Below are positions 14,896 to 46,943 of a stretch of DNA of 64,000 bases, piece after piece (position 1 is the stretch's first letter; each line of letters starts with the position of its first letter). Source of the stretch: an uncultured virus (IMG/VR IMGVR_UViG_3300030707_000002) (Duplodnaviria > Heunggongvirae > Uroviricota > Caudoviricetes); IMG/VR virus record IMGVR_UViG_3300030707_000002; one strand, given 5' to 3'. The notes under the pieces are model-generated. The model was not told the DNA's origin and searched no databases. It saw only the letters and a program-made list of their open reading frames with translations. Position numbers and translations under genes: made by a program.

Positions 14896-14905
14896 GAAAA
14901 ATCCC

Positions 14906-15079: not shown

Positions 15080-15098
15080 GGTTGAAGGAGCCGAAACC

Positions 15099-15278
15099 AT
15101 GAACGCGATCCAGATCCACACGGTTCCCGCAACCCGGAAGTACCTCGTGATGGTCGCCAAGCCCGGCATCGTCCACCGCCACGAGTGCGCCTCCCCGCAG
15201 GCGGCCGCTGCCGCCACCCGCGTCTACCGCAAGGCCGGCTGGGCGGTGACCGTGCTGCCAGAGAGAAGCTCCCCATGA
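15099..15278 (+). CDS. small hypothetical protein
   Basis: AAGGAG SD; MNAIQIHT... Confidence 0.6.
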   Translation: MNAIQIHTVPATRKYLVMVAKPGIVHRHECASPQAAAAATRVYRKAGWAVTVLPERSSP

Positions 15279-20008: not shown

Positions 20009-20475
20009 GCGGTTTGCCGACGGCTTGGGAGACCCTGCGTCGGAGCGTGAACGGGGAGTCGGGTCTCATCGGTACGCCCGGCATTCGGGACCCCGACGGA
20101 GTGTGCGAATCCTTCGATGGCAAGGGGTACACCGGCCGAGGGACCTGCCACTCCGACGGACACTACCTGTGCGTAGAGTGCTCCGAGCTGTCGCCGGACG
20201 CGCCACGGTTCCATGAGCACGGGCGCGCGGGTCGCGCCGATCGCTTGCGCCTATTCTGGGCTCGCACTGGCTTGACGGCTCTTCTTGCGCTCATCGTCGG
20301 CTGCAACACCCCCGTGCCCTGCCCTGACCTGGCGCCTGCGTCATCCGCTCTCGCCATTCCCATCCTGGTTTCCGTTATGGCCTCGGCCTGGTTTGTTCGG
20401 CGATACCGCCGTTCCCGACTCGAGTGGCTCCAAGCCGTCGAGGCGTGGAACCGATACAAGAGCCGCTGCCGATGA
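20005..20475 (+). CDS. Cys-rich domain fused to membrane segments
   Basis: C..DGHYLC..C, then two hydrophobic stretches. Confidence 0.6.
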   Translation: MSGLPTAWETLRRSVNGESGLIGTPGIRDPDGVCESFDGKGYTGRGTCHSDGHYLCVECSELSPDAPRFHEHGRAGRADRLRLFWARTGLTALLALIVGCNTPVPCPDLAPASSALAIPILVSVMASAWFVRRYRRSRLEWLQAVEAWNRYKSRCR

Positions 20476-21032
20476 ACCCTCCCGTCCGCGCCGCCTACCG
20501 CGAGTTCGATGTCGCGGTCGCTCGCCTCGTCCGGCACGCGCGCACCGAGGTCAGTATCCCGTGCGCCGACGGGTGCAGCGCATGCTGTTTCGATGTCGCA
20601 TGGGCGGTCAAGCCCGAGGTCGACGAAATCGCCGAGCGCGTGCGGAGCATGCCGACCGCCAAGCGAGCACGGGTCTTGGAGCGCACCCGGCAGTGGCTCG
20701 CCGGGATGCGGGCAGCGGGTCTGGACCCCGACGACACCTGGCCGGACCTGCGCACCTACCACCGAGCCCACCTCGCGTGCCCGCTGCTCGAAGATAACCG
20801 CTGCCTGACCTACGATCTTCGCCCGATGTCCTGCCGCGCGCACTACGTAGTCGCCCCCGACGCGAACGGCTGCGCGAACCGCGCCGAGGTGCCGACGATC
20901 GAGACGCTGGAGATGCCGGGCCTCCTGACCGAGGCGTTCGCGCGAATGCTCGACTGGAAACCCACCAAACTGCGCGATCACTTGCTCCCGCGCCTGCTCG
21001 GTGCCGCACTCGGCGTCGAACCGTTGTCATGA
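20472..21032 (+). CDS. YkgJ/FliB-family (CxxxCxxCC) cysteine-cluster protein
   Basis: CADGCSACC...CPLL....CLTYDLRPMSCR. Confidence 0.85.
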   Translation: MNPPVRAAYREFDVAVARLVRHARTEVSIPCADGCSACCFDVAWAVKPEVDEIAERVRSMPTAKRARVLERTRQWLAGMRAAGLDPDDTWPDLRTYHRAHLACPLLEDNRCLTYDLRPMSCRAHYVVAPDANGCANRAEVPTIETLEMPGLLTEAFARMLDWKPTKLRDHLLPRLLGAALGVEPLS

Positions 21033-25252: not shown

Positions 25253-25452
25253 CCTCGATCCTTCGGTTGGTGCATGCAGCGTGGATCCTGAGAGACGCAG
25301 CCACCGTCCTCCGTGGTTATGCAGTGAGCGTCCGGTTCGACTTCAATCTCGCCGGTGCCGCCGCAGTCCTCGCACTTCAGTTCCTGGGGCCCGTGCGCGT
25401 TGACCATGACGAAGCCGTGGCCGTCGCACGCCTTGCACGGAGAGCTCGCCAT
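25249..25452 (-). CDS. DnaJ-type zinc-finger small protein
   Basis: CKACDGHG...CEDCGGTG; AAGGAG SD. Confidence 0.65.
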   Translation of the reverse strand: MASSPCKACDGHGFVMVNAHGPQELKCEDCGGTGEIEVEPDAHCITTEDGGCVSQDPRCMHQPKDRG

Positions 25453-26024
25453 CACCGATCTCCTTTCGATTCCCACGGTTGCCGCTCCCACGGCTGCTTC
25501 GTTCGCAGCCACTCCGCGCACAGCTTCGCGTGCTCGATGGACTCCAGGATGTCGGCGCGAGCCCGGTGCGCTTCCGCCTTCATGACCTTCGTCATCCCGA
25601 GCGACCGGCAGAAAAGCTTCACCGCCGAGACATCGTAGTGGCGGTACGAGAGCCGCGCAGCGAGCCGGGGCATGTGGACACGCAAGAACCCGTGGTCAAA
25701 GTGCACGGTCGACCCGGCAAGTGTCGGCTTGTCCTCGCCGCTTGCGACCTCTGGCTCGGGCACGATCGTCAGCAGATGCTCTTCGATCTCGGCCACGGTC
25801 GTCGTGGACCGAGCGCACTCGTCGAGCAGTCCGCTCTCCCGGTGGGACCGTCGCGCGAAGTCGGTGCTAAGCCGAGAGGTGTCGACGAACCGAAACACAG
25901 AGTTGCGAATGGGGCCGATGTCGAACGGACGCTCGAGGTCGGCCTCGGCGATGGCTATCTCGAGCAGATCGTTGCTCTCGGGCACGAGCCCTGAAGTTTC
26001 TAAATCGATCCAATACATCTTCAT
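25452..26024 (-). CDS. orn: oligoribonuclease-like DEDDh exonuclease
   Basis: WIDLETSGL, LEIA, LAGSTVHFD..FL..HMP.L...LSYRHYDVS, HRA.ADI.ESI; AGGAGG SD. Confidence 0.85.
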   Translation of the reverse strand: MKMYWIDLETSGLVPESNDLLEIAIAEADLERPFDIGPIRNSVFRFVDTSRLSTDFARRSHRESGLLDECARSTTTVAEIEEHLLTIVPEPEVASGEDKPTLAGSTVHFDHGFLRVHMPRLAARLSYRHYDVSAVKLFCRSLGMTKVMKAEAHRARADILESIEHAKLCAEWLRTKQPWERQPWESKGDR

Positions 26025-26125
26025 GTGCAGCCTCCTATGTTCGCTGTTGCCACTTGAACCGGATGCCAGTTCTGCGCCGTGGCTCGCTGCGCATGGTCGC
26101 ACTCGTGGCACCGGCGGTTGAATGC

Positions 26126-26800
26126 TCATGACAGTGGGTCAACCTCCTCGCTTCGCATAAACCGAACCAACCTATCAAGGTCTTCGATTGTCGCGTCACT
26201 TTTCAACCTATTTGCCTTCCACGACATGACCATCACGTTTCCGCGGATATAACCTTTTGTGTTGTCTCTACGATCTACAGAAATAGAGTCATCCGCCCTG
26301 TTCCTATTGAATTGCAGCTTCATCCCAAAAACTGGACATGTATCTACCCACACAGCCAACAGGTCCGACTCATCTAGATCGAAATGTACACCTTTCACCT
26401 TAGCTTGACCTCGCAAGTGATTGATCATGTACCTTACTGGATTATCGAGTCGTCTTTGCTTTAGGTAGCAGGCATTACATATTCCGTTAGAACCTCTCGG
26501 CCTGTCTGGGTGGCAGAGTGACACAAGTTCTCGAACGTGATCATCGTCTATGCGTACACATCTTCGGTTTTCACACACATAACTCAACCTCGTACTAGGC
26601 TGACGCTTCTTGATCTGCTCGAAGGCATATCTGGCGCACATCACCGTTCTGTAAAGCAAAGTGCCCTGATCGGTTCGGTAACTGACTGAGAACCGCCCCA
26701 ATCCATCTACACCAGCATGTCCATTCCAAATCCAGCAAGCTTCGGTCTTTTCCACCTTAGACCAAAATCGGACATCGTTTTCTATTAGAGGTCTACTCAT
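26126..26800 (-). CDS. HNH-type (homing-like) endonuclease, low GC
   Basis: RFWSKV.K...CWIW N-domain; CPVFG...SVDR.DNTKGYI.GNV..MSWKAN.LK; visibly AT-richer. Confidence 0.8.
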   Translation of the reverse strand: MSRPLIENDVRFWSKVEKTEACWIWNGHAGVDGLGRFSVSYRTDQGTLLYRTVMCARYAFEQIKKRQPSTRLSYVCENRRCVRIDDDHVRELVSLCHPDRPRGSNGICNACYLKQRRLDNPVRYMINHLRGQAKVKGVHFDLDESDLLAVWVDTCPVFGMKLQFNRNRADDSISVDRRDNTKGYIRGNVMVMSWKANRLKSDATIEDLDRLVRFMRSEEVDPLS

Positions 26801-26808
26801 TGGACTTC

Positions 26809-27576
26809 CTATGTGAACGGATCGATCTCTTCATCACCGATCCCGACCGTCGATTGATCTTCTAGCTTCTGTTTTACCGATGCAAAATCGTGCATCATGC
26901 AGTCGCTCTGCTCGATGAGTAAGCACGGTCGGCTAAGTCGCACTGCGGCGACACCTGTACTGCCGCTACCAGCCATTGGATCGAGTACAAGCTCACCTGG
27001 ATTGCTCGACGTCTCGATCATGATCTCGGCGAGACGAGATGGTTTTTCGGCAGGATGGATCTTGCCGCGGAACAGTTCCACTACGTCCGTCCAGACGTTC
27101 GTTCGACGAAGGAACTCGCTCTTGGCCGGGAAGCGAGCGTTGTACCCGGGGTACCCGCGCTTCACGTCGAGCAGCGGAATGTTGAACGTGCGCGGCTTGT
27201 CGCCCTTGACGAGCATGGCGCATTCCTCCCTCGTGAAAAGTAGATTGGAAGCCGTCCCGTACGCGCGCTTCTTCGACCACGTGATGAGGTTGTGGATACG
27301 GAGTGTCGTCTCCCGCTCAACCCGCGTGAGCCAGTCGAAGAAGACGCGCGGCTTGCCAGGCTTGCCGATCCCGCCCCAGACGTACGAAGTGCCACCCTCC
27401 GGGAGCAGTCGCTCGATGAGGACGGCCAGTTCATCGTAGAGACTCCCCTTCCGGTCCCAGTTCACCTTCAGAATGTCGACGTACGGCGGGTCCGCGATGA
27501 TGAGCGGGAACGATCCGTCGGCGAGCGTCTTCGCGTACTCGAAGCAGTTGGCGCGAACGACCGTGGGCAGAATCAT
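26809..27576 (-). CDS. DNA amino-methyltransferase (N6-A/N4-C, beta class)
   Basis: IIADPPY first, then HPAEKP and VLDPMAGSGSTG. Confidence 0.9.
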   Translation of the reverse strand: MILPTVVRANCFEYAKTLADGSFPLIIADPPYVDILKVNWDRKGSLYDELAVLIERLLPEGGTSYVWGGIGKPGKPRVFFDWLTRVERETTLRIHNLITWSKKRAYGTASNLLFTREECAMLVKGDKPRTFNIPLLDVKRGYPGYNARFPAKSEFLRRTNVWTDVVELFRGKIHPAEKPSRLAEIMIETSSNPGELVLDPMAGSGSTGVAAVRLSRPCLLIEQSDCMMHDFASVKQKLEDQSTVGIGDEEIDPFT

Positions 27577-27809
27577 CGCTTCGGCTCCGTGATCACTCGT
27601 ACCACCGCGAGCTGCATCGGCGTCGGCTCCACGATCTTGCTGAGAGCGCACCGAACCAGGCGCGCTGTGGCGATCTGCCGCTGCGCCTCGAAGTCGGGAT
27701 GCTCACGCATCCGGCAGTCGCTCGGGTGGCCGCACGGACAGCCCTTGCGCTCGCTGCCGCCCATGCACGTCAAGCCGCACCAGACGAGGAACTTGGTCGC
27801 GTCGTTCAT
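27573..27809 (-). CDS. small Cys-rich protein
   Basis: GAGGAGG SD, coupled at both ends. Confidence 0.6.
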   Translation of the reverse strand: MNDATKFLVWCGLTCMGGSERKGCPCGHPSDCRMREHPDFEAQRQIATARLVRCALSKIVEPTPMQLAVVRVITEPKR

Positions 27810-28546
27810 GAGAGCGGGTCCTCCTCGTCGAGCGTTGGATCGTTCGGAACGCCTGTGTCGACGGCTACCTCGGCGGCCAGCGTTGGTATTGCCACCGCAC
27901 CGTGTTGGCGCTGATGCGGACATCCGCCGCGCGATTTGGCCCAGTTGCAGTTGTGGCAGAGAGTCTGAAAACCAGGAGGGAAACCGTTCTTCTTTAGCCA
28001 CCGATAAAAAAATGCCGAACTGACGCCTCTTAGTTCGCGTCGATGCTCAGCTCCATCATTGTTGACGTGATCGATCGCTAAAAAAATCTCTTCCTTCTCA
28101 CCGCAACATGCACAAACATTTCCGTAAGCGAGCAGCACCTCTCTTCGTAGTTCTCGATTGAACCTGTTCATTGCGCGACGAGAGTTCTCTCGCACGCGAT
28201 TCACCACCGTGCACTTCTTGCAGTAATGCGTTCCTGTGCGTTCCGGAGGCAGACAATCTCCACACCGAGGACAGGTGCCGTCCCAGAGACCCACCGTGCA
28301 CACGGTCGGATCGTTGTGCTTGCGCCACCGCTTCCAGTGCATGAGGCACCAACCACGGGCGACGGACGTGCGAACGCACCCGTCGATTGAGCAGGTCGCC
28401 TTCGGTGGCAACGGCGCACTCATATCCGAACCTCGACTGGCGCGCTGCCGATGCGCCACACACACGTCGCCAGAGTCAGCGGTCCGAACGCAGCCGTCGA
28501 CCGAGCACGTGGCGTTCTTTGGAGGGTGAGGCATGGCAAAAATCAC
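27806..28546 (-). CDS. HNH endonuclease with two N-terminal Cx4C-CxxH repeats
   Basis: TCS[VI]DGCVRT twice; YG..CACCGE...IDHVNNDG...LCHNCNWAK; start GTG 28546 or ATG 28534. Confidence 0.85.
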   Translation of the reverse strand: MIFAMPHPPKNATCSVDGCVRTADSGDVCVAHRQRASRGSDMSAPLPPKATCSIDGCVRTSVARGWCLMHWKRWRKHNDPTVCTVGLWDGTCPRCGDCLPPERTGTHYCKKCTVVNRVRENSRRAMNRFNRELRREVLLAYGNVCACCGEKEEIFLAIDHVNNDGAEHRRELRGVSSAFFYRWLKKNGFPPGFQTLCHNCNWAKSRGGCPHQRQHGAVAIPTLAAEVAVDTGVPNDPTLDEEDPLS

Positions 28547-29160
28547 GACAGCGGATCCTCGTCGACCACATCTCGAACTGGACCCGCAACTGGACCACCA
28601 CGGTAAGCCGTCACGTGGCAACCTGGGAAAGCATCGACCAGTAATCTTATTACAGCGCATTCCCTGAACGTGATCTCGCTCCGGTCCTTCCTCCCCGTCC
28701 TCGCCGGCACGAGCGTGATCCCTCCGTCGAGGTGGGGAGCCGAGAGCTCGACCTCCACCCCAGCCTGCTCGAGAGCCTCCAGGCTCGACGGGTCGATCTC
28801 CTTGGCCGGTTCGAATGGACGCGGGGGGGCCATCGTCACCGTCCCGTGGGCCGTCCGCAGGCGGGCCGGTGGGCGCGGCGGGGGCGGGTCCTGGGCGGCG
28901 AGCACCAGCGGAGCCGGAGTATCCCCGTCGGGAATGGGGGGGGCTGACTTCGGCTTCCGCCGAACATCCAGGAGCTGGCTCTTCTGCGCCTCGCTCCCGT
29001 TCCGACGGACCCACTCCACGCAGAGCAGCTCGCTCGGGAGCTTGCAGAGTCCCTCCGCCTCCATCTCCCCGGGCGGGATGTAGTAGCGACAGAGCTTGGC
29101 CCCAGGAGAGGCTGGCTCCCACTTCGTGCACTCAATACCGCTCGGCAGGGGGATGGTCAT
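28543..29160 (-). CDS. hypothetical protein: Cys-rich domain, Pro linker, C-terminal domain
   Basis: GAGGT SD; next to the candidate origin. Confidence 0.7.
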   Translation of the reverse strand: MTIPLPSGIECTKWEPASPGAKLCRYYIPPGEMEAEGLCKLPSELLCVEWVRRNGSEAQKSQLLDVRRKPKSAPPIPDGDTPAPLVLAAQDPPPPRPPARLRTAHGTVTMAPPRPFEPAKEIDPSSLEALEQAGVEVELSAPHLDGGITLVPARTGRKDRSEITFRECAVIRLLVDAFPGCHVTAYRGGPVAGPVRDVVDEDPLS

Positions 29161-29180
29161 GGTCACACCTCGGGACCCTC

Positions 29181-29555
29181 TCAAGGGATCAATTTTTGGC
29201 AAGTGGACGTGATTTTGAAGCAACGGATCGCCTGTGGAAAACTCGAATTTATTTTTAGTTACGTATAGTTAGGTACCAAGTGATCGACAGCACGCAAGGG
29301 CACAGACGTTGCCACTATTTTACTGTGTATGAGGATTGGTTTGTGAGTATGGGATCGATTTGTCTTGGATCGTGTCCGGTGGTTCGGTGGATTTCTCTCT
29401 GCGAAAACAACCATAGGAACAGCTACATTTTGTTGATCCCTTGATCACTTGATATGGTTTGACGACGCAACTCGTCGAATAGGATGAGAAAATCAAGGGA
29501 TCGTTGAAGTGATCCCTTATAGGTCCCTTGCTTCGTTGCGCGATCACTTGGGGGT
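29181..29555. repeat. candidate replication origin: AT-rich region with GATC(C/A)CTTG iteron-like repeats
   Basis: About 10 exact or near copies in both orientations; 11-bp inverted repeat 29435-29445/29492-29502; directly downstream of the primase gene. Confidence 0.65.
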
Positions 29556-32500
29556 TCATCCTTCACCGAGCCCTCTCCTCCACGGCGGAAGCGGCGGAGC
29601 CTTCCCCGCCGATTTGCGTTCGCCGCCCCATGTGGCTGGAACTCCAGGCCAATCGAGCTCGAGGCCGACCCGCTCGAACGCTTTCTCCACGTCGATGAGC
29701 CAGCACCGGACGCGTACGGGATGGGAAGTCTCCTCGCCCACATCGTCGGTGGATCCCATCCGGTACGGGAAGCTCGGGTCGACGAGCCAGCCGGTGTCCC
29801 CCTCCTTGGCGTACTCCTCGCGGGCGGCGTTCCGGAGCGCCGTCAAGCCGTTCGTGGGGTCCGGACGGCCTCGCGTCTTCGCTTCCCTCGACAGCGTCAC
29901 GGCGAGGCTGCCAGGGTGCACGACGAGCATCTTCCGGAAGTTCCGGAGGCAGAGCCGGTAGCACTTGTGTTCTGCGAAGTCCCCCTTCTGGGCGTACGGG
30001 CTGACCTCCTCCAGCGCCCGGACGACCAGGCTCTTCGCGGTGATGGAGATGACGTTCCCCCCCTCCTCGGGGATCACCATCTCGGTCGTCGTCTCGAGGA
30101 CCCTCCGGAACACGCTGTCGAGGAGCGGCCGGGGCACCGCGGTGTGGGCGCGCTCGGCCCGGGAGGCGAGCCATTCGTTCCAGCTTCGCACCCGGAAGGC
30201 GAGTTCGATGCAGAGGTCGACTGTCCGTGGGGCCACCCGCAACTTCATCCGGTCGAGCGCCTCGGCGGCGTCCCGCTTCGCGTCGGACCACCACACGCGG
30301 ATGACGGACGGGTCGACCCGCATCCGCCACTGCAGGATGTCGGTCGCGACCCGCCACCGCTCGTCGGTCTCGAGCACCTCGTGCAGTTCCTTGGTCGCCT
30401 TGCGGGTCTCGATCGTGGTGCGGTCGAGCGACACCATGACGAGCCGCTCGCCCATCGCGGCGTCCATGTCTCCGCGTTGCTCGCCGGCGAGCAGCACCGC
30501 GCCGTGCAGTTCGTATCCGCGCACCGACTGGTCGCGGCTGCCGCGCATCTCGGAGGTGCCGGAGAACCCGGTGCGGAGCAGGCGCATGAAATCGTTTCCC
30601 GCCTCATCGACCCGGTACTCGTCGAACGCGGACACGAAGAGGTTCGACCAGGAGAGGTTGCGAATGGTGGCGAAGCGGGTCTCGGCCGGCGTCGCCATCT
30701 CGAACCGGGGACCGAACGGCTGGAAGGTCTTGCTGAGCACCCCTTTCGTCAGCGTTGTCTTCGAACTGCCGGTCGTCCCGAAGACGTTGAGGATGCTCGC
30801 CTTGCCGCCGTTCATTTCGCGGATGTTGGGCAAGAAGTAGCAGCCGACGAACCACGCGCAGAGGATCGTGAGCTTGATCGGATCGTTCAGCGTGAAGATG
30901 AGCGCAAGCAGCCGCTCGATGAGCGGGTCGACCTCGGCGGGATCCTGCTTGCCGTCGACCTTGATCATCGAGCAGAACGGCACCGACCCGGTGTCGGTCG
31001 TGTAGACGATGTCGGGGTTCTCCATGACCCCCTCGGCGTTCCAGGTCTCGCCGGGCAGCACGAGCCGCAGGCCGCCCGCGGTCTGGTGCAGGCCCACGAC
31101 GGGCTCCCCGCGCACGGTGGGGACGGCGAGCCGGGCCGCCCGCTCGCTCACGATCTGGTAGACCGAGTGCACGTTGAAGTCCGAGCCGTTGAACTGCATC
31201 CGCTCGTGCGGGAAGGACGAGACGAAGGCTCGCCGGCTGGTCCACGCGAGCTTCGGCACGACCCAGCGTTCGACGAGCGACGTGTCGGTCTCGATGTGCA
31301 CAGAGACCTCCAAGAGCCGGTCGCCGTTCGAGCCGATGATGATGCGCGAGGGCTGGAGCAGGAACGTCGAGACGGTGATGGGCGACCCGTCCTTGGCGTA
31401 GCCCTGGTAGCAGCGTACCTTGCCGGGCTGGTCGAAGCCGCCGCGCTCGATGACGCGCCCCTCGATGTCGAGAATCTTGTCGTCCTGGATGGCGGCCAGC
31501 GCGGCTGCTTCGGCTTTTGCCGCAATATCGAGCCGCTCGTCGGCTTCCCCCATCGCCTGCTTGATGGCGGTCTTGGTGAACTTGGTGGTGAGATGGTTTT
31601 TGACGAGGTGCGCGATCTCTTCCTTCTCGGCCTTGCTCGACTTCGCCGCCCGAGCGAACTGCACGATCTGGTTGAGCGCTTCCGGAAGTTGGTTGGCCGT
31701 GAGGTCGGTGGGGAGGAACCCGACGAGAGCCGCCGCGACGCTCGGCGCGTTTGCCATGAGCTCCGCGAACGGGTCGTCGTCCTTCCCGGCCCGCTTCCAC
31801 GCGAGCACCCAACTCGCAGGGTCCACCTTCGTCTCGCCGGGCGGGAGCGGGAAGACGAGGAGCCGAACGCGCTTGCCGGCGGCGATCAGGGTCGGCGCCA
31901 TCCGGAGCGCACCCTCGAGCCCGGGTCGGCGGCCGTCCGGCTTGACGTCGGTGTCCGTCGCGAGGACGACTTCCTTGTACTGGGCGGTGGCCTCCAGCAG
32001 CATCGGCACGTCTTCACTGCGGATGCTGGTGGCGACTGGCGCCACGCAGTCGTAGCCGGCCTCCACCATCGCCATGCAGTCGCTCGGCCCCTCGACGATG
32101 ACGAGCCGCGCGAAACCGGTGCGGCTATGGGCGCCGTTGTCGGCGTTGTAGAGGAGATCGTTCTGGACGAACGGACTGACGCTCGGGTGCGACGGTCCAC
32201 CGACGAGCGCCTTCTTGAACTTCGCCTGCTCCCACGGGAAGCGATCGAAGTACGACGGCTGGATCTCCTGCTCGTAGATGATGCGCGCGCACGCGTACCG
32301 GCACTTGCCGCGGAAGAGGTACGGGTAGAGTAGTCGCCCGTCGAAGAGGCACCGGAGCTCGGGGTCCGGATCGTTGGGGATCTGGGATCGCTGTAGGAAC
32401 CACCCGGTCTTGACGAGCTGCTTGCGCGTGTACGGGAACACCCCCTGCTCACGGAGATCCTCGAGCACGTCCGCGAATCCGTGCGGCACGAACCCGAGCA

Positions 32501-33050
32501 TGAACCGCTGCTGCGTCTCCTCGGAGATCCCCCAGCGAGCCTCGATGTACGGGACGAGCTTCGATCGGATCAGCCACGAGTGGCAGAGGTCGACCATCGC
32601 TTGCTGCATGCTGGCGATGAGCTGCCGCTCATCGAGCGTGAGCGTCTTCTCGTACGCCCGGTCCCACTCCTCCTGCGTGAATCCGTCGGGGGGTGGGGAC
32701 TTGCCGCCGCCGCCCTCGCCGTGCTGTTTCTTGTACGCGTCCCACGGCATGCCGGCGCGGTCGCCGCACCACTTCACGGCGCCGACGAAATCGAGCCCCT
32801 CCTTTCGTTCGACGTACGCGTAGAGGTCGAAGCTCTCGCGGGTCGCGAAGTCGAACGCGACGTACTCGCCACCGCCTTCGAAGACGGAGAAGCTCGGGTG
32901 CCGATCCTCGCGGAGCGGCGAACAGCAGAGGATGCTCGATTTGCCGGTCGCTCGAAGCTGTTTGGGGTGACTCTCCTCGACGAGGTCCCGGAGCGAGACC
33001 TTGAGTCGGACCTCGTTCTTGTATTTCTCGAAGAGGGAATCCTGGCTCAT
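29556..33050 (-). CDS. DNA primase (Zn finger + TOPRIM) fused to a P-loop ATPase/helicase domain
   Basis: CCSPLRED.HPSF N-terminus, IVEGPSD and D.D TOPRIM, G..GSSKTT Walker A, AFDEY Walker B. Confidence 0.9.
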   Translation of the reverse strand: MSQDSLFEKYKNEVRLKVSLRDLVEESHPKQLRATGKSSILCCSPLREDRHPSFSVFEGGGEYVAFDFATRESFDLYAYVERKEGLDFVGAVKWCGDRAGMPWDAYKKQHGEGGGGKSPPPDGFTQEEWDRAYEKTLTLDERQLIASMQQAMVDLCHSWLIRSKLVPYIEARWGISEETQQRFMLGFVPHGFADVLEDLREQGVFPYTRKQLVKTGWFLQRSQIPNDPDPELRCLFDGRLLYPYLFRGKCRYACARIIYEQEIQPSYFDRFPWEQAKFKKALVGGPSHPSVSPFVQNDLLYNADNGAHSRTGFARLVIVEGPSDCMAMVEAGYDCVAPVATSIRSEDVPMLLEATAQYKEVVLATDTDVKPDGRRPGLEGALRMAPTLIAAGKRVRLLVFPLPPGETKVDPASWVLAWKRAGKDDDPFAELMANAPSVAAALVGFLPTDLTANQLPEALNQIVQFARAAKSSKAEKEEIAHLVKNHLTTKFTKTAIKQAMGEADERLDIAAKAEAAALAAIQDDKILDIEGRVIERGGFDQPGKVRCYQGYAKDGSPITVSTFLLQPSRIIIGSNGDRLLEVSVHIETDTSLVERWVVPKLAWTSRRAFVSSFPHERMQFNGSDFNVHSVYQIVSERAARLAVPTVRGEPVVGLHQTAGGLRLVLPGETWNAEGVMENPDIVYTTDTGSVPFCSMIKVDGKQDPAEVDPLIERLLALIFTLNDPIKLTILCAWFVGCYFLPNIREMNGGKASILNVFGTTGSSKTTLTKGVLSKTFQPFGPRFEMATPAETRFATIRNLSWSNLFVSAFDEYRVDEAGNDFMRLLRTGFSGTSEMRGSRDQSVRGYELHGAVLLAGEQRGDMDAAMGERLVMVSLDRTTIETRKATKELHEVLETDERWRVATDILQWRMRVDPSVIRVWWSDAKRDAAEALDRMKLRVAPRTVDLCIELAFRVRSWNEWLASRAERAHTAVPRPLLDSVFRRVLETTTEMVIPEEGGNVISITAKSLVVRALEEVSPYAQKGDFAEHKCYRLCLRNFRKMLVVHPGSLAVTLSREAKTRGRPDPTNGLTALRNAAREEYAKEGDTGWLVDPSFPYRMGSTDDVGEETSHPVRVRCWLIDVEKAFERVGLELDWPGVPATWGGERKSAGKAPPLPPWRRGLGEG

Positions 33051-34423
33051 GCGTCGATCCCGATCGATCGGTATGCCCGTCGTCGCTCACCCGCCCGGCG
33101 GGCCAGGGTCTCCACGTGCTTGTCTACGACGTCGAAGAGGATGGGGTCCTTGCCCTCCCACTTGCGGGTCAGTCGACCGACCCGCTGCACGGTCTTGCCG
33201 CGCCCCCGTTCGGGGAAGGCGAGGACGATGCGGGAGAGCCGCTCGATGTTGAGCCCCTCGTCGGCGAGCGATGTCGCGATGACGACGGAGGCGCGACCGG
33301 CGCGCAGATCGTCGAGCGCCCCCTTCCGCTGAGACTTGCCAGTCGTCCCAACGACGACGCGGGCGTCCACACCCATCGCGGCGAGCAGCTTGCCGAGTTT
33401 GCGGCAGTGGTCCTTCCGGTTCGAGAGGAGCAGCACCGTCTCGCCGGCCTGCGCTTCCCACATCACCAGCTCCGTGATGAGCTGATTGCGGTCCTTGTCA
33501 GCGGTGATCGCACGGTGCAGCTTTGTGATGCGGCGCGGGTCCGTCGAGCTCATCTCGAACTCGAATGCGGTGGGCACCTCGACGACGCGCGGCATCATGA
33601 GGAACCCGTCATCGACCAGCTCCTGCACCGTCTTCGTGAGCAGCCTCGAACCGAACGACCAGTCGACCAGCTTGCCGTGGCCGTCCTCGCGATCGGGGGT
33701 GGCTGTGAGGCCGAGACGGAGTCGGGCGGGCAAGTAGCGGATCACGCGCTGGAAGGTGTTCGCTGGGACGTGCTGTGCCTCATCGAGGATGACCAGTCCA
33801 AACCGTTTTCCGAGCTCGGGCCAAGTTTCGAGCAAGGTTGCCAGCGAGAACACGCTTGCGACGACGATGTCCCGCTCAATGTCCTTGTGCTCGTCGTTGA
33901 TGATCCCTGGCTCGATACCGAGTCCCTCCCGAATCTCCTCGACCCACTGATCGAGCAGGTCTCCTGTGTGCACGAGCACGATCGTGGTGCGGCAGAACCG
34001 CGCGATGGCGCCGGTTCCAAGCTTGGTCTTGCCGCCTCCGCATGGCAGCACGACCAGACCCTGGGTTCGGCTCTCCAGCTTGGAGATGCCGCTCGTCTGG
34101 TACGAGCGCGCGTTCGGGATCGAGAGGGGACCGATGGCGGAGCCGTTCGTGCGCCGGTCCTCGAAGTCGACACCGATGTCATCCTCGGCGAGTGCGCCAC
34201 GAACCACATCGATCGCGCCGCGAGGCACCGAGATGGATCCGTCTGGCCACTCGGTCATGCACTCGAACCGCAGCGGCAGACCGGCGGTGCTGAGGTTGAG
34301 CCGGCTGGCTTTCACGTACTCGGGGTGCGGGTACGAGAGCGAGAAGCGGAGCCGTTCGATGCTGCGGATGGGGAGGTCGCGGAGGACGATCTCGGCGGAG
34401 ACCGTGGCGCGGGTGCGATTCAC
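33047..34423 (-). CDS. SF2 DExH-like helicase
   Basis: LPCGGGKT, LDEAQH, GLTATPDR.DG, EGLNI, QRVGRLTR. Confidence 0.92.
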   Translation of the reverse strand: MNRTRATVSAEIVLRDLPIRSIERLRFSLSYPHPEYVKASRLNLSTAGLPLRFECMTEWPDGSISVPRGAIDVVRGALAEDDIGVDFEDRRTNGSAIGPLSIPNARSYQTSGISKLESRTQGLVVLPCGGGKTKLGTGAIARFCRTTIVLVHTGDLLDQWVEEIREGLGIEPGIINDEHKDIERDIVVASVFSLATLLETWPELGKRFGLVILDEAQHVPANTFQRVIRYLPARLRLGLTATPDREDGHGKLVDWSFGSRLLTKTVQELVDDGFLMMPRVVEVPTAFEFEMSSTDPRRITKLHRAITADKDRNQLITELVMWEAQAGETVLLLSNRKDHCRKLGKLLAAMGVDARVVVGTTGKSQRKGALDDLRAGRASVVIATSLADEGLNIERLSRIVLAFPERGRGKTVQRVGRLTRKWEGKDPILFDVVDKHVETLARRAGERRRAYRSIGIDA

Positions 34424-35103
34424 GGAGCGCCGCCACTCGCGAGATACTCGGTCTCGTCCTGATCGACGATGCGCCGGACGTCGTGCCAGTTGACGCCGTA
34501 CCAGCCGTTGCGGGTGAGCAGTCCGTTGGCGGTTGGCTCTTCGCGACAGCCGATCGATTCAGGTGGCAGCTCGTCACCCTCTTGAATCCATCCTTTTCTG
34601 CGCTTCCTCGCGAAGAGCTCCACGTGCGCCTCGGGCCAGAGCTCCAGCGGGTACAGCCGCTCGACGATGCGGTAAAACTCCTCGGGCTTCTCCGAGTGCT
34701 CGGTCGTGCGGGGTGCACGAAACGACGTTCGCTCGCTCTTGCTCGTCGGTTTGATCAGCTTGCCGCGCCGGGCGACGATGCACGTCTCGTGGCTGCCGCG
34801 CACGATGTGGCCCATGCCGATCGCGTCCTTCTCACCGTCTGGCATCGTCTTGTTCCAGACGATCTCGCTCTTGGGAACGAAGTCCCAGGCCCGGACGACT
34901 TGGTACGCCTCCTCGACCATCGAGCTGACGCGCCAGAGAAAGAGCACGGCGTCCTTGTGGATGGGTGGGAGAGGCATACGCATGATCGCACTCAGACTCA
35001 TGCACTTGTAGTGTTTCTTGGCTCCCCGCCCTTTGCCTGGGAGCTGATCGCGATGCGACCAGGGTGGATCGACAATAAGCACGCGAGCTAGCGTCGTCGT
35101 CAT
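34420..35103 (-). CDS. MT-A70-family adenine methyltransferase
   Basis: VDPPW, LFLW, W.K, HSEKP, ELFAR..RKGW. Confidence 0.9.
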   Translation of the reverse strand: MTTTLARVLIVDPPWSHRDQLPGKGRGAKKHYKCMSLSAIMRMPLPPIHKDAVLFLWRVSSMVEEAYQVVRAWDFVPKSEIVWNKTMPDGEKDAIGMGHIVRGSHETCIVARRGKLIKPTSKSERTSFRAPRTTEHSEKPEEFYRIVERLYPLELWPEAHVELFARKRRKGWIQEGDELPPESIGCREEPTANGLLTRNGWYGVNWHDVRRIVDQDETEYLASGGAP

Positions 35104-35171
35104 GTACGCACCAACCTTCTCCGGTGCTCGCGCGATCGGCGACGCAAACCGGGACCAGCACTCTCTCCGCT

Positions 35172-35191
35172 TGTTGACTAGCTAGTCAACA
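35172..35191. promoter_or_regulatory. perfect 20-bp palindrome, candidate operator
   Basis: TGTTGACTAGCTAGTCAACA between divergent replication operons. Confidence 0.7.
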
Positions 35192-35199
35192 GAAAACGG

Positions 35200-35229
35200 T
35201 TGACGAAATCTCTTCGTGCGACCTAGTGT
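35200..35229 (+). promoter_or_regulatory. sigma70-type promoter for the SSB/DinG operon
   Basis: TTGACG-18-TAGTGT. Confidence 0.5.
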
Positions 35230-35299
35230 TCGTCCTCGCGTGAGTAGCCCTGTGCGGGAGGTCCCCGCGAGTGGCTCGGTACGTCAAGGAGAGAGAATC

Positions 35300-36181
35300 A
35301 TGTCAGGGAGCAAAGGTTCCTGGGCAAAGACCCAGGAGGCAATGGAAAATTCGGGATCGAGTACGTTCTTGCGGTTGGAGCACGACGGAGACAGTGCGGT
35401 CGTGGCCTTCTGCGGGTCACCGTTTCACAGGGCCATTTGTTTCAACGAGAAGACCGGTACCTACGAGGCGTGGGACGACGCCGCGAAGGCATCGGGCAGG
35501 AAGAAGTCGGACCGCTACGCGATGAACGCCTTCGTGGTGTCGGTCAAGGGCGTCGAGACCAACGAAATGAAGGTCGTCGACATGAACTTCAAGACGATGC
35601 AGAACGTCATCGCCCTGAAGGACAAGTACACGCTCGGCAAATGCTTGTTCGAGATCAAGCGGCATGGCTCGAAGGGCGACACGAAAACGCAGTACCAGAT
35701 TCTGCCTGACGCAGAGATCAAGCCCGAGCAGCGGACCATCTTCGGCAGCCAGGATCCGAAGGATCCGGACAACTGGATCGAGGGGACGGACAAGCTCATC
35801 GATCTCGAGGAAGCGACCGCCAAGGACAGCAGTGACGCGTCCACGGCGGTCACCGACGACGTCAAGGCGAAGGCGAGCGGCAAGGGTGCTGCGAAGACCA
35901 ACGGCACGACGGCGCCGGCGGCACCCGCGCCTGTACCTACCGCTGCGCCTGTACCGACCGCTGCACCGAGCGGCGACGTGATCTCGAAGGCATCGGCCGC
36001 CGAGATCATCGAGAAGCTGAAGCCGCTCGATCGGGAGAAGGGCATCGGTCCGTTCCTTGCGAAGTTCCCGTACGCGAGGAAGGTGAGCGAGGTGCGGGCC
36101 TCCGACGAGGCGACCGCACGCGCGCTCGCGGTGGAACTGTCGGGCGGCGGCAAGCCGGCGGCGGAAGACCCCTTCGCCTGA
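35300..36181 (+). CDS. putative phage single-stranded DNA-binding protein
   Basis: FLRL..DGD, FEIKRHG.KGD..T.Y.ILP pattern, Pro/Ala linker (APVPTA x2), acidic-aromatic tail EDPFA; AAGGAG SD. Confidence 0.6.
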   Translation: MSGSKGSWAKTQEAMENSGSSTFLRLEHDGDSAVVAFCGSPFHRAICFNEKTGTYEAWDDAAKASGRKKSDRYAMNAFVVSVKGVETNEMKVVDMNFKTMQNVIALKDKYTLGKCLFEIKRHGSKGDTKTQYQILPDAEIKPEQRTIFGSQDPKDPDNWIEGTDKLIDLEEATAKDSSDASTAVTDDVKAKASGKGAAKTNGTTAPAAPAPVPTAAPVPTAAPSGDVISKASAAEIIEKLKPLDREKGIGPFLAKFPYARKVSEVRASDEATARALAVELSGGGKPAAEDPFA

Positions 36182-36188
36182 AGGACGA

Positions 36189-36241
36189 TCCACGCGCAGC
36201 TCGACGGACAGATCGTAGCGTCCGCCGGGCTGCGTGATGGA
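36189..36241 (+). other. GC-rich stem-loop after the SSB stop
   Basis: TCCA-CGCGCAGCTCG-A-CGGAC pairs with GTCCG-C-CGGGCTGCGTG-A-TGGA; no U tract. Confidence 0.5.
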
Positions 36242-36369
36242 CGAGTCGTTCGCGTGTGCGGCCGAGCAGGAGCTCGATCGTGGCGCGAAGCTTCATCCAA
36301 GGAATCTCGAGCTCTCGTCGAGTCGCTGCTCGACGTGTGGGGCTCGTGGGAGAGTCGAGGTCGGCCTAC

Positions 36370-38466
36370 GTGAATGACTTATGGGACGCGGACCTTCCGT
36401 CCGCGGACGCGTACATCGACGCGACGTTCGGGCCGGACGGCTACCTCGCGAAGAAGTGGGGGTATCGGTACCAGCCGCGCGATGGGCAGATCGCTTTGGC
36501 TCGATCGGTTGACGCCGCGTTGAGCAGTCGAACGCATCTCTTGTCAGAGGCGCCCACAGGTACCGGCAAATCGATCGCGTACTCCGTCCCAGCCACCTAC
36601 CACGCGGCCACGCGCGGCCAGACGGTGGTCATCGTCACGGCAAACATCGCCCTGCAAGAGCAAATCGTGAATAAGGATCTCCCGCTGCTCGGTGAGATCC
36701 TGCCGTGGGCGTTCTCGTTTGGTCTCTTGAAGGGCCGATCAAACTACCTCTGTCGAACGCAGTACGAGAAGGTGCGGCTTGGTCATCGCCAGCAGGCGAT
36801 GTTCGGTGAGTCCGGGGGGTCCAAGGATGACCGCGACCGGACGCGGCTCATGAAGTGGGCGGAGAGCGAGATCGCGGAGCGCGGGTACGGCGACAGCTCG
36901 TCGCTTGATTGGAAACCGACCGACAAGCTTTGGCGGGAGCTCTCGGTCGCACCGGAAGACTGTCGTGGTGGCAAGTGCTCGTTCGCCGACACCTGTGGGG
37001 CGTTGGCCGCGCAGCGCGTCGCGCGCGAGAGTCAGGTCGTCGTCACCAACTACCACCTCTTCTTCTTGAACCTGCTCATCTGCATGGAGAAGGGGATGGA
37101 CTTGATCCTGCCGCCGTTCGACGTTGCCATCTTCGACGAAGCGCACCGTGCGCCTGACATTGCTCGGGACTTCTTCGGATGGAAGATCGGCGAAGGCTCC
37201 GTCCGACGGGTGGCCCGTCACCTCCGCGTCGCGGACCCGGCGCTCATGGAGAGCCTGGAGCAGGCGGGCGGACGGTTCTTCGAACAGATGCTGCAGCTCC
37301 GGCGCGACCGGGACCGGTACAAGGCCCGCGTCGTTCCCGAGCGACTCAATACGTACGACCTCGCGGCGGCAAATCACCTGCTCGAACGGCTGTCGATCTT
37401 CTTGGCTCGGCTGAACGAGGAGACGCAGGGGCTCGCGTCCATCGCCTCGAGCGGGAGTCGGCAGGCGATCGATCAGCTCGGCGGCACGGAGATCGTGGTG
37501 AGCCGGGCCGAGAAGCTGATCGGGGCGGTCGCAAGCGTTCTCGAGAACGACGACGACAACGAGGTGATCTTCATCGAGGAGGACGAGTTCCACAAGGCGT
37601 ACGTGTCGTGCCGATTGGTCAAGCCGGCGCAGATGCTTCGTGGATCGCTCTTCGGCAAAACGGTCACGCATCCGCCGACGATGGATGCGCCACCCTCCGA
37701 TCCCGAGCCGGTCTCCGTCGTCTGCACGAGCGCGACGCTCGCCACCGAGTCGAGCTTCGATTTCGCCAAGAGCGAGCTCGGGGTACCGCGCTGCGAGGAG
37801 ATCGTCGTCGACAGCCCGTTCGACTACGAGCGGCAGGCCCTCTTCATCATTCCCGACGTCTGCGACCCGAACGATCCACGGTTCACGGCGGAAGTGGCCG
37901 CAGTGCTCCTGCGAACGATCGAGCTGGCGCGCGGGCGGACGCTCGGGCTCTTCACGTCCCGCAAGCGGATGAACGAGGTCTTCGACTCCGTCGCGCCGCG
38001 CACGCCGTTCCGGATCATCCGGCAGGACGACGGGCAGCGCACGCAGCTTATCGAAGAGTTCCGGCGTGACACGCACTCGGTGCTGCTCGGCGTGGCGAGC
38101 TTCTGGGCCGGTGTGGACGTCCCCGGGGAATCCCTGTCGTGCGTGTTCATCGACAAGATTCCGTTCCCGACGCCGGACGACCCGGTTCTCGAGCGGCTCA
38201 TGGAGCACGACAAGCGGGCGTGGAGCGGGTACGCGGTGCCGCGCGCCATCATCGAGTTCAAGCAGGGGTTCGGGCGGCTGATTCGCAGCAGCACCGATCG
38301 AGGCGTCATCGTCTGCTGCGATTCGCGGCTCATCACGAAGGGCTACGGCAAACAGTTCCTGCGGGCGATGCCGAAGGGGATGCAGAAAATACGGAACCTG
38401 GAGGCCATCCGCGAGTGGCTTGACGGGCCGGGGATGGCAGAGGAATCGATCGATCCGCTAAGCTAG
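36370..38466 (+). CDS. dinG: DinG/YoaA-family Fe-S helicase
   Basis: EAPTGTGKS, KGRSNYLC, C....C....C, DEAH, SATL, FWAGVDVPG, QGFGRLIR. Confidence 0.95.
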   Translation: MNDLWDADLPSADAYIDATFGPDGYLAKKWGYRYQPRDGQIALARSVDAALSSRTHLLSEAPTGTGKSIAYSVPATYHAATRGQTVVIVTANIALQEQIVNKDLPLLGEILPWAFSFGLLKGRSNYLCRTQYEKVRLGHRQQAMFGESGGSKDDRDRTRLMKWAESEIAERGYGDSSSLDWKPTDKLWRELSVAPEDCRGGKCSFADTCGALAAQRVARESQVVVTNYHLFFLNLLICMEKGMDLILPPFDVAIFDEAHRAPDIARDFFGWKIGEGSVRRVARHLRVADPALMESLEQAGGRFFEQMLQLRRDRDRYKARVVPERLNTYDLAAANHLLERLSIFLARLNEETQGLASIASSGSRQAIDQLGGTEIVVSRAEKLIGAVASVLENDDDNEVIFIEEDEFHKAYVSCRLVKPAQMLRGSLFGKTVTHPPTMDAPPSDPEPVSVVCTSATLATESSFDFAKSELGVPRCEEIVVDSPFDYERQALFIIPDVCDPNDPRFTAEVAAVLLRTIELARGRTLGLFTSRKRMNEVFDSVAPRTPFRIIRQDDGQRTQLIEEFRRDTHSVLLGVASFWAGVDVPGESLSCVFIDKIPFPTPDDPVLERLMEHDKRAWSGYAVPRAIIEFKQGFGRLIRSSTDRGVIVCCDSRLITKGYGKQFLRAMPKGMQKIRNLEAIREWLDGPGMAEESIDPLS

Positions 38467-41249: not shown

Positions 41250-41425
41250 GGTCGCTCCCCATCGGGGTGCCAGGTACGGCGTCTCAATGACCCATCCGGG
41301 AGGACGAGTCCCGCCTCCGCCTCCGCGTGCTCGGCCCGGCAGTCAGGCGTGGCGAAGCGTTCGCCGAGGGCAGTGAGCACGCAGCGGCATCCAGGGTCTT
41401 TCTTGGGTCGATTCCGCCCGGTCAT
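41246..41425 (-). CDS. small hypothetical protein
   Basis: Coupled at both ends. Confidence 0.5.
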   Translation of the reverse strand: MTGRNRPKKDPGCRCVLTALGERFATPDCRAEHAEAEAGLVLPDGSLRRRTWHPDGERP

Positions 41426-41634
41426 GTCGCTGTGTTTTCTGGTTTGCACGCCATCGCCTTCTTGGCGAAGAAGCACGCCTCTTCCAGCTTGGTTCGGCAC
41501 AAAGACATCTCCCGCGACGGATCCGGCACGACGGCGAGTAGGGTCGACAGGCAGGTGTCGAAAGTCTGGGCGATGGTCGCAGCCTTCGACTTGCCGTCTG
41601 CGTTGAGCATGTGGACTTCAAATTCCTTGTTCAT
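41422..41634 (-). CDS. Acb2/Tad1-like helical hairpin protein (putative cyclic-nucleotide sponge)
   Basis: SREMSLCRTKLEEACFFAKKAMA; AAGGAG SD. Confidence 0.75.
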   Translation of the reverse strand: MNKEFEVHMLNADGKSKAATIAQTFDTCLSTLLAVVPDPSREMSLCRTKLEEACFFAKKAMACKPENTAT

Positions 41635-46112: not shown

Positions 46113-46285
46113 CAGCGACCTCGCTTGCCGTTCGCATCCAAGCCGCGCTCGAGGAGCAGTCGCACGACGTCGCTGATGCTTGGCTCGATGCCGGTCAGTC
46201 GCTTGGCTTCTTGCTGTTGCTTCACGATGCGCGCGTGAAGCGCCTTGCTAACTCGTGCGGCAATCTGGATGTCGTTTCCGTTCAT
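46112..46285 (-). CDS. ribbon-helix-helix protein (antitoxin/regulator-like)
   Basis: IAARVSKALH...SISDVVRLLLERGL; TGATG-coupled to the NTase. Confidence 0.75.
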   Translation of the reverse strand: MNGNDIQIAARVSKALHARIVKQQQEAKRLTGIEPSISDVVRLLLERGLDANGKRGR

Positions 46286-46295
46286 CACACGAGGC

Positions 46296-46346
46296 ATCCT
46301 AGCAATAGGTTTCGCCGTTGACAATGGGAACATCGCAGTCTACCGT
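46296..46346. promoter_or_regulatory. divergent promoters sharing overlapping -35 boxes
   Basis: Plus TTGACA-17-TACCGT; minus TTGTCA-17-TAGGAT; both -35 boxes within TTGACAA 46318-46324. Confidence 0.7.
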
Positions 46347-46355
46347 CCTCAGGCG

Positions 46356-46943
46356 ATGCCGGAAGCCGCCGTGAGCTGGGTCGAGCGCGACGGAAAAGTG
46401 CTCGTCGTCTGGAACCGCCGGTACCGAGGCTGGACGCTCCCCGGTGGACTCATCGAGGAGGGGGAAACCCCGCCGCAGGGGATGGCGCGGGAGCTTCGAG
46501 AAGAGACGGGACTTGTCGTCGTGACGGCTCCGGTGCTCTACGACGCGCCCGCCGAACTGATCGCCGATGGTCCCAAGAACCGCGGCAGCCACGTCTGGGT
46601 ATTTCTCTGCGATCAGGCGTACGGAATCGCCAGTCCCGTCGAGGGGCCGATCATGTGGGTTACGCGCGACGAGTTTCTTGCGCTCTGCCCGTTCAAGCGC
46701 TTCTACGAGCGGATGTTCGCGGTGCTCGGATGGACGGGCGCCGAAGAACCGAAGAGCGCCGCAATCGTCAAGCATGCGGGGCCCGTGGCGTACGTTACGG
46801 CGCGGCTGGATGGTCTGCTGATTGTGAGTGAGCTCGACAAACCGGCCTCTTGGTTATTGGCTCCGGTCACGAACCTTCTCAAGGACTACGGCGACAGGCG
46901 GGTGTCGATTGTTATCGCGAGCGAGGATCCGCTCAATGGGTGA
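46356..46943 (+). CDS. Nudix hydrolase plus shared C-terminal module
   Basis: PGGLIEEGETPPQGMARELREETGL Nudix box. Confidence 0.9.
   Translation: MPEAAVSWVERDGKVLVVWNRRYRGWTLPGGLIEEGETPPQGMARELREETGLVVVTAPVLYDAPAELIADGPKNRGSHVWVFLCDQAYGIASPVEGPIMWVTRDEFLALCPFKRFYERMFAVLGWTGAEEPKSAAIVKHAGPVAYVTARLDGLLIVSELDKPASWLLAPVTNLLKDYGDRRVSIVIASEDPLNG

Follow-up and report, generated by a model that had tools for sequence, protein, structure and literature searches.

The DNA analysed here is a 64,000-nt stretch of an uncultured caudovirus (IMG/VR record IMGVR_UViG_3300030707_000002), referred to below as the window. It has a G+C content of 65%, is densely coding and contains no structural genes, and a replication module spans its 25.4-38.5 kb interval. 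Between positions 26,126 and 38,466, six proteins end in the same acidic C-terminal peptide, [DE]x0-2-D-P-[LF]-[STA]-stop (hereafter, the tail). Translations and a six-frame scan located all six exactly where a first-pass annotation, made from the sequence alone, had reported them, and the six codon strings quoted in that annotation are correct. The tailed genes are the following.

26126-26800, minus strand: HNH/endonuclease VII-like protein of 224 amino acids (phrog_3322 endonuclease, 1.5e-29), ending ...RSEEVDPLS
26809-27576, minus strand: N6/N4 DNA methyltransferase of 255 amino acids (Pfam N6_N4_Mtase, 2.4e-21, residues 25-225), ending ...GDEEIDPFT
27806-28534, minus strand: HNH endonuclease of 242 amino acids (PHROG HNH families, 2.9e-11), ending ...LDEEDPLS
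28543-29166, minus strand: Cys-rich protein of 207 amino acids adjoining an iteron-like intergenic region, ending ...VVDEDPLS
35300-36181, plus strand: protein of 293 amino acids resembling a single-strand-binding protein (SSB) of the gp32 kind (phrog_14578 SSB, 1.4e-9), ending ...AAEDPFA
36337-38466, plus strand: DinG/XPD-like helicase (Pfam Helicase_C_2, 3.9e-41), ending ...EESIDPLS

The ATG start of the SSB-like gene at 35300 was checked. The DinG start at 36337 was taken from a collection entry of 709 amino acids (P0001), our own gene caller having placed it at 36370.

The tail is enriched far beyond chance. Over all six frames of the window, DP[LF]x precedes 6 of 2064 stop codons, and all six of these close long open frames (234-742 codons) that are real genes. 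We also assembled a composite proteome. The first 26394 bases of a second record, G001 (117.7 kb), match window positions 1-26394 at 99.985% identity before continuing into other DNA, and together the two records represent about 155 kb of essentially one phage. In the resulting 215 proteins (108 from the window and 107 from the non-overlapping part of G001; approximate counts), DP[LF]x was found 22 times in 42165 positions; 16 of these occurrences are internal and 6 are C-terminal, against a C-terminal expectation of 0.082 (Poisson P 3.9e-10). Shuffling the last 30 residues in 2000 trials, a comparison already suggested by the first-pass annotation, gave a mean of 0.094 and a maximum of 2 C-terminal occurrences against the 6 seen. 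All six tailed genes fall inside 12.3 kb, and outside this cluster no such ending was present among the other 102 window proteins or the 107 non-overlapping proteins of G001.

Furthermore, the tail is conserved among relatives of the window. No near relative was found among GenBank phages, in which DinG and primase protein matches were merely 22-33% identical. A complete relative with terminal repeats, G002 (116,275 bp), encodes a DinG 66% identical to that of the window. The protein collection has 34 DinG homologs at ≥59% identity, every one with the tail as [EA][EV][VI]DP[LFW][ST], preceded by a Pro/Ala-rich linker of unequal lengths, and 45 of the 48 SSB-like homologs end [ED]D[PA]F[ASGT], with D and F invariant in the alignment (A3). 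Orthologs of the 207-amino-acid protein (207-296 amino acids), which matched no Pfam or PHROG family, are tailed in four cases out of four (EEEDPLS in G002, EEDPFS in locus L087, NVDPLS in L093 and MEDPLS in L094); homologs from a sister clade, clade B, lack the tail. In G002, the DinG ends VEDPFS, the 296-amino-acid ortholog of the 207-amino-acid protein ends EEEDPLS as given above, and an HNH_3 endonuclease ends SIDPFS; the SSB-like protein carries the variant SEDAFS. In the clade of the window (clade A, 13 metagenome loci), every SSB-like gene, every DinG and every 207-amino-acid ortholog is tailed, and 31 of 1053 six-frame open reading frames (ORFs) bear the tail versus 44 of 17725 in the other loci of L015-L159. 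The low-complexity linker that the first-pass annotation placed before most tails is found in the DinG orthologs and in the SSB-like protein, but in the HNH protein at 26126 the tail directly follows the PHROG-matched domain.

The codons speak for selection on the peptide. Over 39 distinct tail ends, two Asp codons, four Pro codons, four Leu codons (CTG, CTC, CTA and TTG) and five Ser codons from both codon families (AGC, AGT, TCG, TCA and TCC) are used. Because each tail position uses several synonymous codons, it is the peptide that is conserved and not the DNA, and conservation at the DNA level only, which the first-pass annotation had named as grounds for abandoning its reading, is contradicted. 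The same variety led us to reject the view that the ending is a nucleic-acid signal, either a Shine-Dalgarno/ATGA coupling element or a terminator, that happens to be translated. Such a signal would suit the GAGGAG codons of the acidic run, which lie 10-13 bases ahead of the overlapping ATGA starts at 26126 and 27806, and the TGA stop of 32 of the 39 tails. However, TCA TGA closes just 5 of the 39 ends, a gap of >150 bases follows the SSB gene, and the ending is absent at the other 2058 stop codons of the six frames. DinG, as already pointed out in the first-pass annotation, uses an AGC Ser codon and has no co-oriented downstream gene, the next gene being convergent. We regard a DNA signal as extremely improbable. 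Taken together, the comparisons support the tail being a protein-level short linear motif under purifying selection, carried by unrelated families and tied to the SSB. Across this clade of uncultivated soil phages, with genomes of at least 116 kb, the tail is found on at least ten unrelated protein families.

The remaining features of the module, none of which bears the tail, are listed below, together with one protein from outside the module.

25452-26129, minus strand: DnaQ-like exonuclease, whose start is overlapped (ATGA) by the stop of the HNH/endonuclease VII-like gene
between 26809-27576 and 27806-28534, minus strand: ORF of 78 amino acids, between the methylase and the HNH gene
29167-29555: intergenic region of 390 bases between the 207-amino-acid gene and the primase-helicase gene
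29556-33050, minus strand: primase-helicase of 1164 amino acids, a DnaG-type primase fused to a P-loop ATPase (CHC2 zinc finger, Toprim and, near residue 760, Walker A by Pfam and PHROG; the Walker A reads GSxGSGKT in alignment A4); candidate receptor
33047-34423, minus strand: superfamily 2 (SF2) helicase (Pfam and PHROG), whose stop overlaps the primase-helicase start; candidate receptor
34420-35103, minus strand: MT-A70 methylase
46269-46943, plus strand: Nudix protein (Pfam NUDIX, 3.3e-15), ending SEDPLNG, not counted as a member

The Nudix ending, which the first-pass annotation had added as a related tail, is real, but its membership was rejected since the orthologs end otherwise (...KVPPG in L090 and ...QVQDS in L093). 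The GVEPLS end of 20445-21032 was rejected as well, as it lacks D-P.

The SSB-like protein offers the best clue to the origin of the tail. The first-pass annotation called it a putative SSB, which agrees with its phrog_14578 match and with its predicted gp32-like fold. In an AlphaFold2 (AF2) model with a mean predicted local distance difference test (pLDDT) score of 76, an N-terminal domain with an oligonucleotide-binding (OB) core (residues 1-165) is followed by a disordered acidic, Pro/Ala-containing linker (164-209), a three-helix domain (210-266) and the tip. The top Foldseek matches of the model were T4/RB69 gp32 structures (8gme_A, E 5.9e-4, probability 1.00; then 2a1k and 1gpc). The modelled protein appears to have the core fold of T4 gp32, in a distant resemblance given template modelling (TM) scores of merely 0.31-0.41. 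A sequence search of the protein against solved structures gave nothing meaningful, and no Pfam family matched at E 0.001, so that it does not belong to PF00436, the bacterial OB-fold SSB family.

The distribution of tips across clades appears to place the SSB first. In clade B, whose DinG is 40% identical to that of the window, the SSB-like protein ends ETDPFA and the primase-helicase ends EIDPWS, and DinG has no tail; primase-helicase ends of the DPW[SA] form were seen only in the clade B loci L138, L141, L149 and L158. In clade C, the SSB-like protein ends DPFA, and DinG ends AWDEL, AWDAL or DEEIPF. More remote relatives of the SSB-like protein, on contigs of Myxococcus xanthus, Corallococcus and Myxococcales, end VDPFGP, VDPFA or VDPFE. 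In the Corallococcus locus L161, homologs of both the SF2 helicase and the primase-helicase come immediately after the SSB-like gene, and the 10 kb flanking this gene on each side contain no DinG homolog. These two helicase genes are also neighbours of the SSB-like gene in clades A and B and in a second Myxococcales locus, L164; in clade C they share its locus. As clades B and C and the Myxococcales relatives all keep DPF on the SSB-like protein, the comparison indicates that the DPF tip of this family is ancestral and older than the other tails. The phage tip would not have been copied from a host tip, since the host SSB read from one Corallococcus genome ends DEDIPF.

C-terminal tips, moreover, look like modules that are exchangeable between clades. 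In a set of 120 DinG homologs among the matches listed, the ending is of the DP type in 35, of the AWDEL type in 30, of the SLFD type, which resembles the clamp-binding motif, in 11, of the DDEIPF type, which resembles the bacterial SSB tip, in 5, HDPY in 2 and none of these in 37. A scan of IMG/VR with a broad DinG alignment returned mostly distant tail-less DinGs, and no tails in common emerged from them in a similarity screen. The DP tail is missing from each of 120 homologs of the SF2 helicase. This helicase and its close homologs (P0169-P0209) share a strictly conserved end of their own, R[AS]YRSIG[MI]D[AV], which may be a second docking motif, and distant homologs end PTLSLFD, PTLNLFG or PVDPFEL. 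The bacterial beta-clamp-binding consensus is a QL[SD]LF-like pentapeptide; the window tails contain neither Gln nor a Leu-x-Leu-Phe pattern and do not qualify as beta-clamp motifs.

Two rival readings can be judged against these tips. The tails might act in cis, as acidic DNA mimics on the DNA-binding surface of each carrier, so that no common receptor would be needed. The carriers all bind DNA, the tail is acidic with a single hydrophobic anchor on a flexible linker, and T7 gp2.5 and the gp32 C-terminal domain provide a precedent in which an acidic tail gates the protein's own DNA binding. Nevertheless, unrelated DNA-binding folds would need no identical, strict D-P-[LF]-small end, AF2 leaves the SSB tail undocked from its own core, and DinG orthologs swap to tips resembling known trans-acting motifs (DDEIPF and SLF-type), which makes this reading improbable. 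Rather less probable still is a C-terminal degron by which a host or phage protease would achieve timed removal of the replication-module proteins. C-terminal peptides can serve as degrons, and G001 and G002 each encode a subtilase-like S8 peptidase. On the other hand, the tail is unlike the hydrophobic LAA end of the ssrA type recognised by ClpX, a protease is unlikely to target an SSB that is abundant and stoichiometric, the tip sits where SSBs bear their interaction motif, and other clades have SSB-Ct-like and clamp-motif-like ends in its place (SSB-Ct, the C-terminal tip of bacterial SSB). We found no support for a degron.

The accessory carriers show how the tail spreads. Relative to G002, the window contains a 2.4-kb island of low G+C content (26126-28534; 0.56 vs 0.65) that lies between the 207-amino-acid gene and the DnaQ-like gene and consists of an HNH gene, the 78-amino-acid ORF, the methylase and a second HNH gene. 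G002 lacks the island at the matching place, and the G001 record terminates within it, at window position 26394. The 150 best homologs of the methylase (among 1.84 billion representatives) are all tail-less; the closest stop just past a shared ...SxCxMH, which indicates that about 25 residues are appended in the window copy. L093 encodes a further tailed N6_N4 methylase. The 207-amino-acid protein aligns with its G002 ortholog over residues 1-192 at 70% identity, and the last 24 amino acids of the HNH endonuclease at 27806 match the C-terminus of that same ortholog (58% identity, E 3e-5, BLASTP). It therefore seems that the C-terminal portion of the resident gene was displaced by the endonuclease gene, with both products keeping the tail.

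Tailed accessory genes stand directly behind a tailed gene in the window (HNH behind the 207-amino-acid gene, and HNH behind the methylase) and in L087, L092, L093 and L096. Over the last 33 bases, the DinG of L092 and the next gene are identical at 28 positions, both with the unusual AGC Ser codon, the L093 pair at 24, the L096 pair at 23 and the window pairs at 15-22. The sharing of tails between neighbours extends beyond the DP type, as in clade C a LAGLIDADG endonuclease gene (L104, 4781-5284; Pfam 6.5e-8) begins on the DinG stop codon and repeats the AWDAL end of DinG with 19 of 21 bases identical. Older copies have diverged synonymously with the motif retained. The first-pass annotation had offered duplication at gene junctions as an alternative account of the tails. 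The L092 and L104 near-copies indicate that it is a real route by which tails originate; it is insufficient as a whole account given the conservation in DinG, the SSB-like protein and the 207-amino-acid orthologs and the synonymous divergence.

These observations bear on a more serious competitor, in which only the core tails (SSB-like protein, DinG and 207-amino-acid protein) are functional and the accessory tails arise passively: a newcomer would enter the conserved tail-coding end of a resident gene by insertion or recombination, leaving one copy with the resident and running with its own frame into the other. The position of accessory genes behind tailed genes, the L092 and L104 near-copies and the match of the HNH gene at 27806 to the G002 ortholog of its upstream gene are what it would predict. 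But tailed accessory genes also occur without a tailed neighbour (HNH_3 of G002, 14779-15201, Pfam 2.2e-12; an ORF of 174 amino acids in L093, 21688-22212; phrog_3193 proteins in L092 and L098). Neighbours in the window island share just 15-22 of 33 bases and still have an intact motif with F/L and S/T changes, and a frame that merely entered a duplicated end should decay fast. We judge this account to be distinctly less probable than the docking reading favoured below.

Two further observations concern these genes. The phrog_3193 proteins are tailed in L092 (PTDPLS) and L098 (GEDPLS), and those of the window (49260-49598) and L093 (21128-21691) end SLEELS and QEDLLS, which may be decayed or variant tails. 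In addition, many DinG and SF2 helicase orthologs in related contigs are 150-400 residues longer and contain Pfam intein/Hint and homing-endonuclease domains (DinG: P0005, P0007, P0010, P0011, P0015, P0019 and P0020; SF2: P0198, P0200, P0222 and P0250). The replication module thus appears to be heavily colonised by selfish elements.

We favour the reading, at a probability of roughly 60%, that the tail, [DE][DE]x0-1[VI]0-1-D-P-[LFW]-[small]-COOH, is a lineage-specific short linear docking motif, which probably plugs all six DNA-handling proteins into one partner at replicating DNA. It is plausible and fits all the comparative data. The tail would be native to gp32-like phage SSBs, a family in which it forms the C-terminal tip and most likely recruits partners to single-stranded DNA at forks and recombination intermediates. 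In the clade of the window, the DinG helicase and the 207-amino-acid protein would have taken over the SSB tip on a flexible linker, and in the sister clade the primase-helicase would bear it. Many proteins with the same tip imply one receptor, and several proteins might compete for, or be delivered to, a single receptor pocket. Candidate receptors are the tail-less SF2 helicase, the primase-helicase, the SSB core itself and a host replisome subunit. As the phage tip differs from the DEDIPF host tip of Corallococcus, it would provide the phage with a private channel. For accessory genes (homing endonucleases, methylases and small ORFs), we propose that the tail is gained by tail-end duplication when they land directly behind a tailed gene, and the acquired tails would then be kept by selection in at least some of them.

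Several points weigh against this reading. The analysis shows that the tail exists, is enriched and is conserved as protein, that its SSB carrier has the gp32-like fold, that tails are gained and exchanged as modules and that they are duplicated locally; that the tail binds anything, and what it binds, we infer. The tail is absent from the primase-helicase (which ends ...RRGLGEG), the SF2 helicase and the MT-A70 methylase of the window, and likewise from PD-(D/E)XK and DnaQ-like exonucleases, a UvrD-like helicase and a third HNH protein. The SSB-like tip was modelled at low confidence, with a mean pLDDT of 54 over the last ten residues and values <50 at 270-273. The near-identical tail DNA on two accessory genes (28/33 and 19/21) may be a passive product of insertion. 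The gene caller, our own, was crude and missed two low-GC HNH genes, which were then added by hand, so that the proteome counts are approximate. Finally, the usual receptors of such tails are missing from the phage as far as a polymerase or clamp can be recognised: Pfam revealed no polymerase or clamp family among 100 proteins of the window, 98 of the non-overlapping part of G001 and 146 of G002, a search that a divergent clamp could escape, and none was found among the 60 proteins shared with G002. Since no polymerase was found, the phage probably relies on the polymerase of its host, combined with the DnaQ-like exonuclease that it encodes itself. This phage of at least 116 kb encodes a primase-helicase, two further helicases, an SSB, a DnaQ-like exonuclease, ThyX and ParB.

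Structure prediction added little on the receptor. A complex of the SF2 helicase, the tip-less SSB-like protein and the last 40 amino acids of DinG, three chains with a mostly disordered partner, received an interaction prediction score from aligned errors (ipSAE) of 0.00 in both runs, which counts neither for nor against an interaction, such a design being unlike those on which the tool was calibrated. The AF2 model of the primase-helicase (mean pLDDT 56, from an alignment of 11 rows) was too poor for a fold search or a choice of domains. Searched by sequence against solved structures, its N-terminal half weakly matched three DnaG primase entries (E about 1e-3), and its C-terminal half had no match.

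Of the docking tag proposed by the first-pass annotation, what stands is a protein-level motif on unrelated families tied to the SSB. Its supposed phage-wide reach does not, as the tail is confined to the replication module and absent from several replication proteins there. Nor is it of the bacterial SSB-Ct kind, the carrier being gp32-like and outside PF00436, and the tip having Asp before Pro and an extra small residue.

A bolder form of the docking reading is a private tip code: a D-P-[FLW]-small tip, orthogonal to the host SSB-Ct, would be common to the SSB and its clients and read by one receptor, and the tail-coding end would also be a landing site. We put it forward tentatively and rate it a little below the passive origin of the accessory tails. 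Several essential genes have the tail-coding end as conserved DNA at their 3' terminus, which could therefore serve as a landing or recombination site. A newcomer gene would thereby inherit the tip and join the replication machinery, with the resident gene keeping its own copy. Related clades might use other codes likewise, for example AWDEL with the LAGLIDADG gene behind DinG.

Some features of the window stand apart from the tail. The motif CAAGKGATC, for which 0.96 copies are expected per window, is present in seven copies, six of them in the intergenic region 29167-29555, in both orientations. These copies, each containing GATC, resemble iterons and mark the region as a candidate origin or operator. 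At 35172-35191, between the MT-A70/helicase/primase operon and the divergent SSB-like gene, lies a perfect palindrome of 20 bases (core TTGACTAGCTAGTCAA), which is likely an operator or promoter element. A protein of 760 amino acids (2703-4985) has another acidic end (...RDEEDDDG), with no Pfam or PHROG family and no counterpart in G002. A protein of 70 amino acids (41422-41634) matches the Acb2/Tad1 hairpin domain (Pfam 3.2e-8) and is a candidate sponge for cyclic-nucleotide defence signals.

Shared C-terminal docking peptides wire the replisomes of T4, T7, bacteria and eukaryotes. A literature search by general terms found no description of the present motif in the titles and abstract openings listed, which leaves its unpublished status unproven. 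By analogy, the closest known system appears to be the clamp-binding C-termini of T4: PMC2988020 describes the C-termini of gp43, gp55 and gp33 as highly similar, acidic and hydrophobic, joined by divergent linkers, interchangeable and bound by the gp45 clamp. In both phages, unrelated proteins carry similar modular C-terminal peptides on variable linkers. Unlike in T4, no clamp gene was found here, the motif is D-P-[LF]-small, and the carriers include the SSB itself, homing endonucleases and methylases.

In T7, the SSB gp2.5 and the primase-helicase gp4 both have acidic tails that end in Phe and bind the T7 DNA polymerase. Clade B similarly pairs an SSB-like protein ending ...DPFA with a primase-helicase ending ...DPW[SA], each with an acidic tail and an aromatic anchor. 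Unlike T7, the primase-helicase of the window clade has no tail, no phage polymerase was detected, and the aromatic residue or Leu is penultimate rather than terminal.

The bacterial SSB-Ct, with its tip ...DDDIPF, is a hub of protein interactions. The C-terminus of T4 gp32 engages the Dda helicase (PMC11551737). As in both, the phage SSB bears its tip on a disordered linker, where those proteins have a protein-interaction site, and its fold is gp32-like. There, one tip serves many receptors, whereas here many proteins share the same tip. The tails, ...[VI]DP[LF][STA], further differ from SSB-Ct in their Asp before Pro and in one extra small residue after Phe/Leu, and the tip is not of the host type: the SSB of a Corallococcus genome that also holds a prophage relative ends DEDIPF, and the prophage SSB-like protein ends VDPFGP.

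For the E. coli DinG-family helicase YoaA, PMC8378479 describes docking of the last 18 residues onto HolC. This again is a DinG-family helicase tethered to the replication machinery by its extreme C-terminus, in that case by another sequence, with a known host partner and with a tail not common to other proteins. Archaea and eukaryotes have PCNA-interacting (PIP-box) clients, one of which is DNMT1. The HNH endonuclease ZRANB3 is reported to be another (PMC5481773). There, a short peptide common to nucleases and a DNA methyltransferase directs them to DNA under replication; motif and hub are different, and the resemblance is functional only.

The phage tails thus differ from the known systems in their motif, in having no recognisable hub, in the SSB being one of many carriers, and in the number and kind of those carriers. 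With no polymerase recognisable in this replication system, the tail may serve as a simple sequence handle for tracing its hub, and the peptide is a tag possibly useful for recruiting cargo to phage replication sites. Its spread would also be a natural example of new genes joining a molecular machine. In the phage examples known so far, docking tails are shared by two or three proteins and the hub is known; here, selfish endonucleases and methylases are among the carriers, and the spread of the tail can be traced in the DNA.

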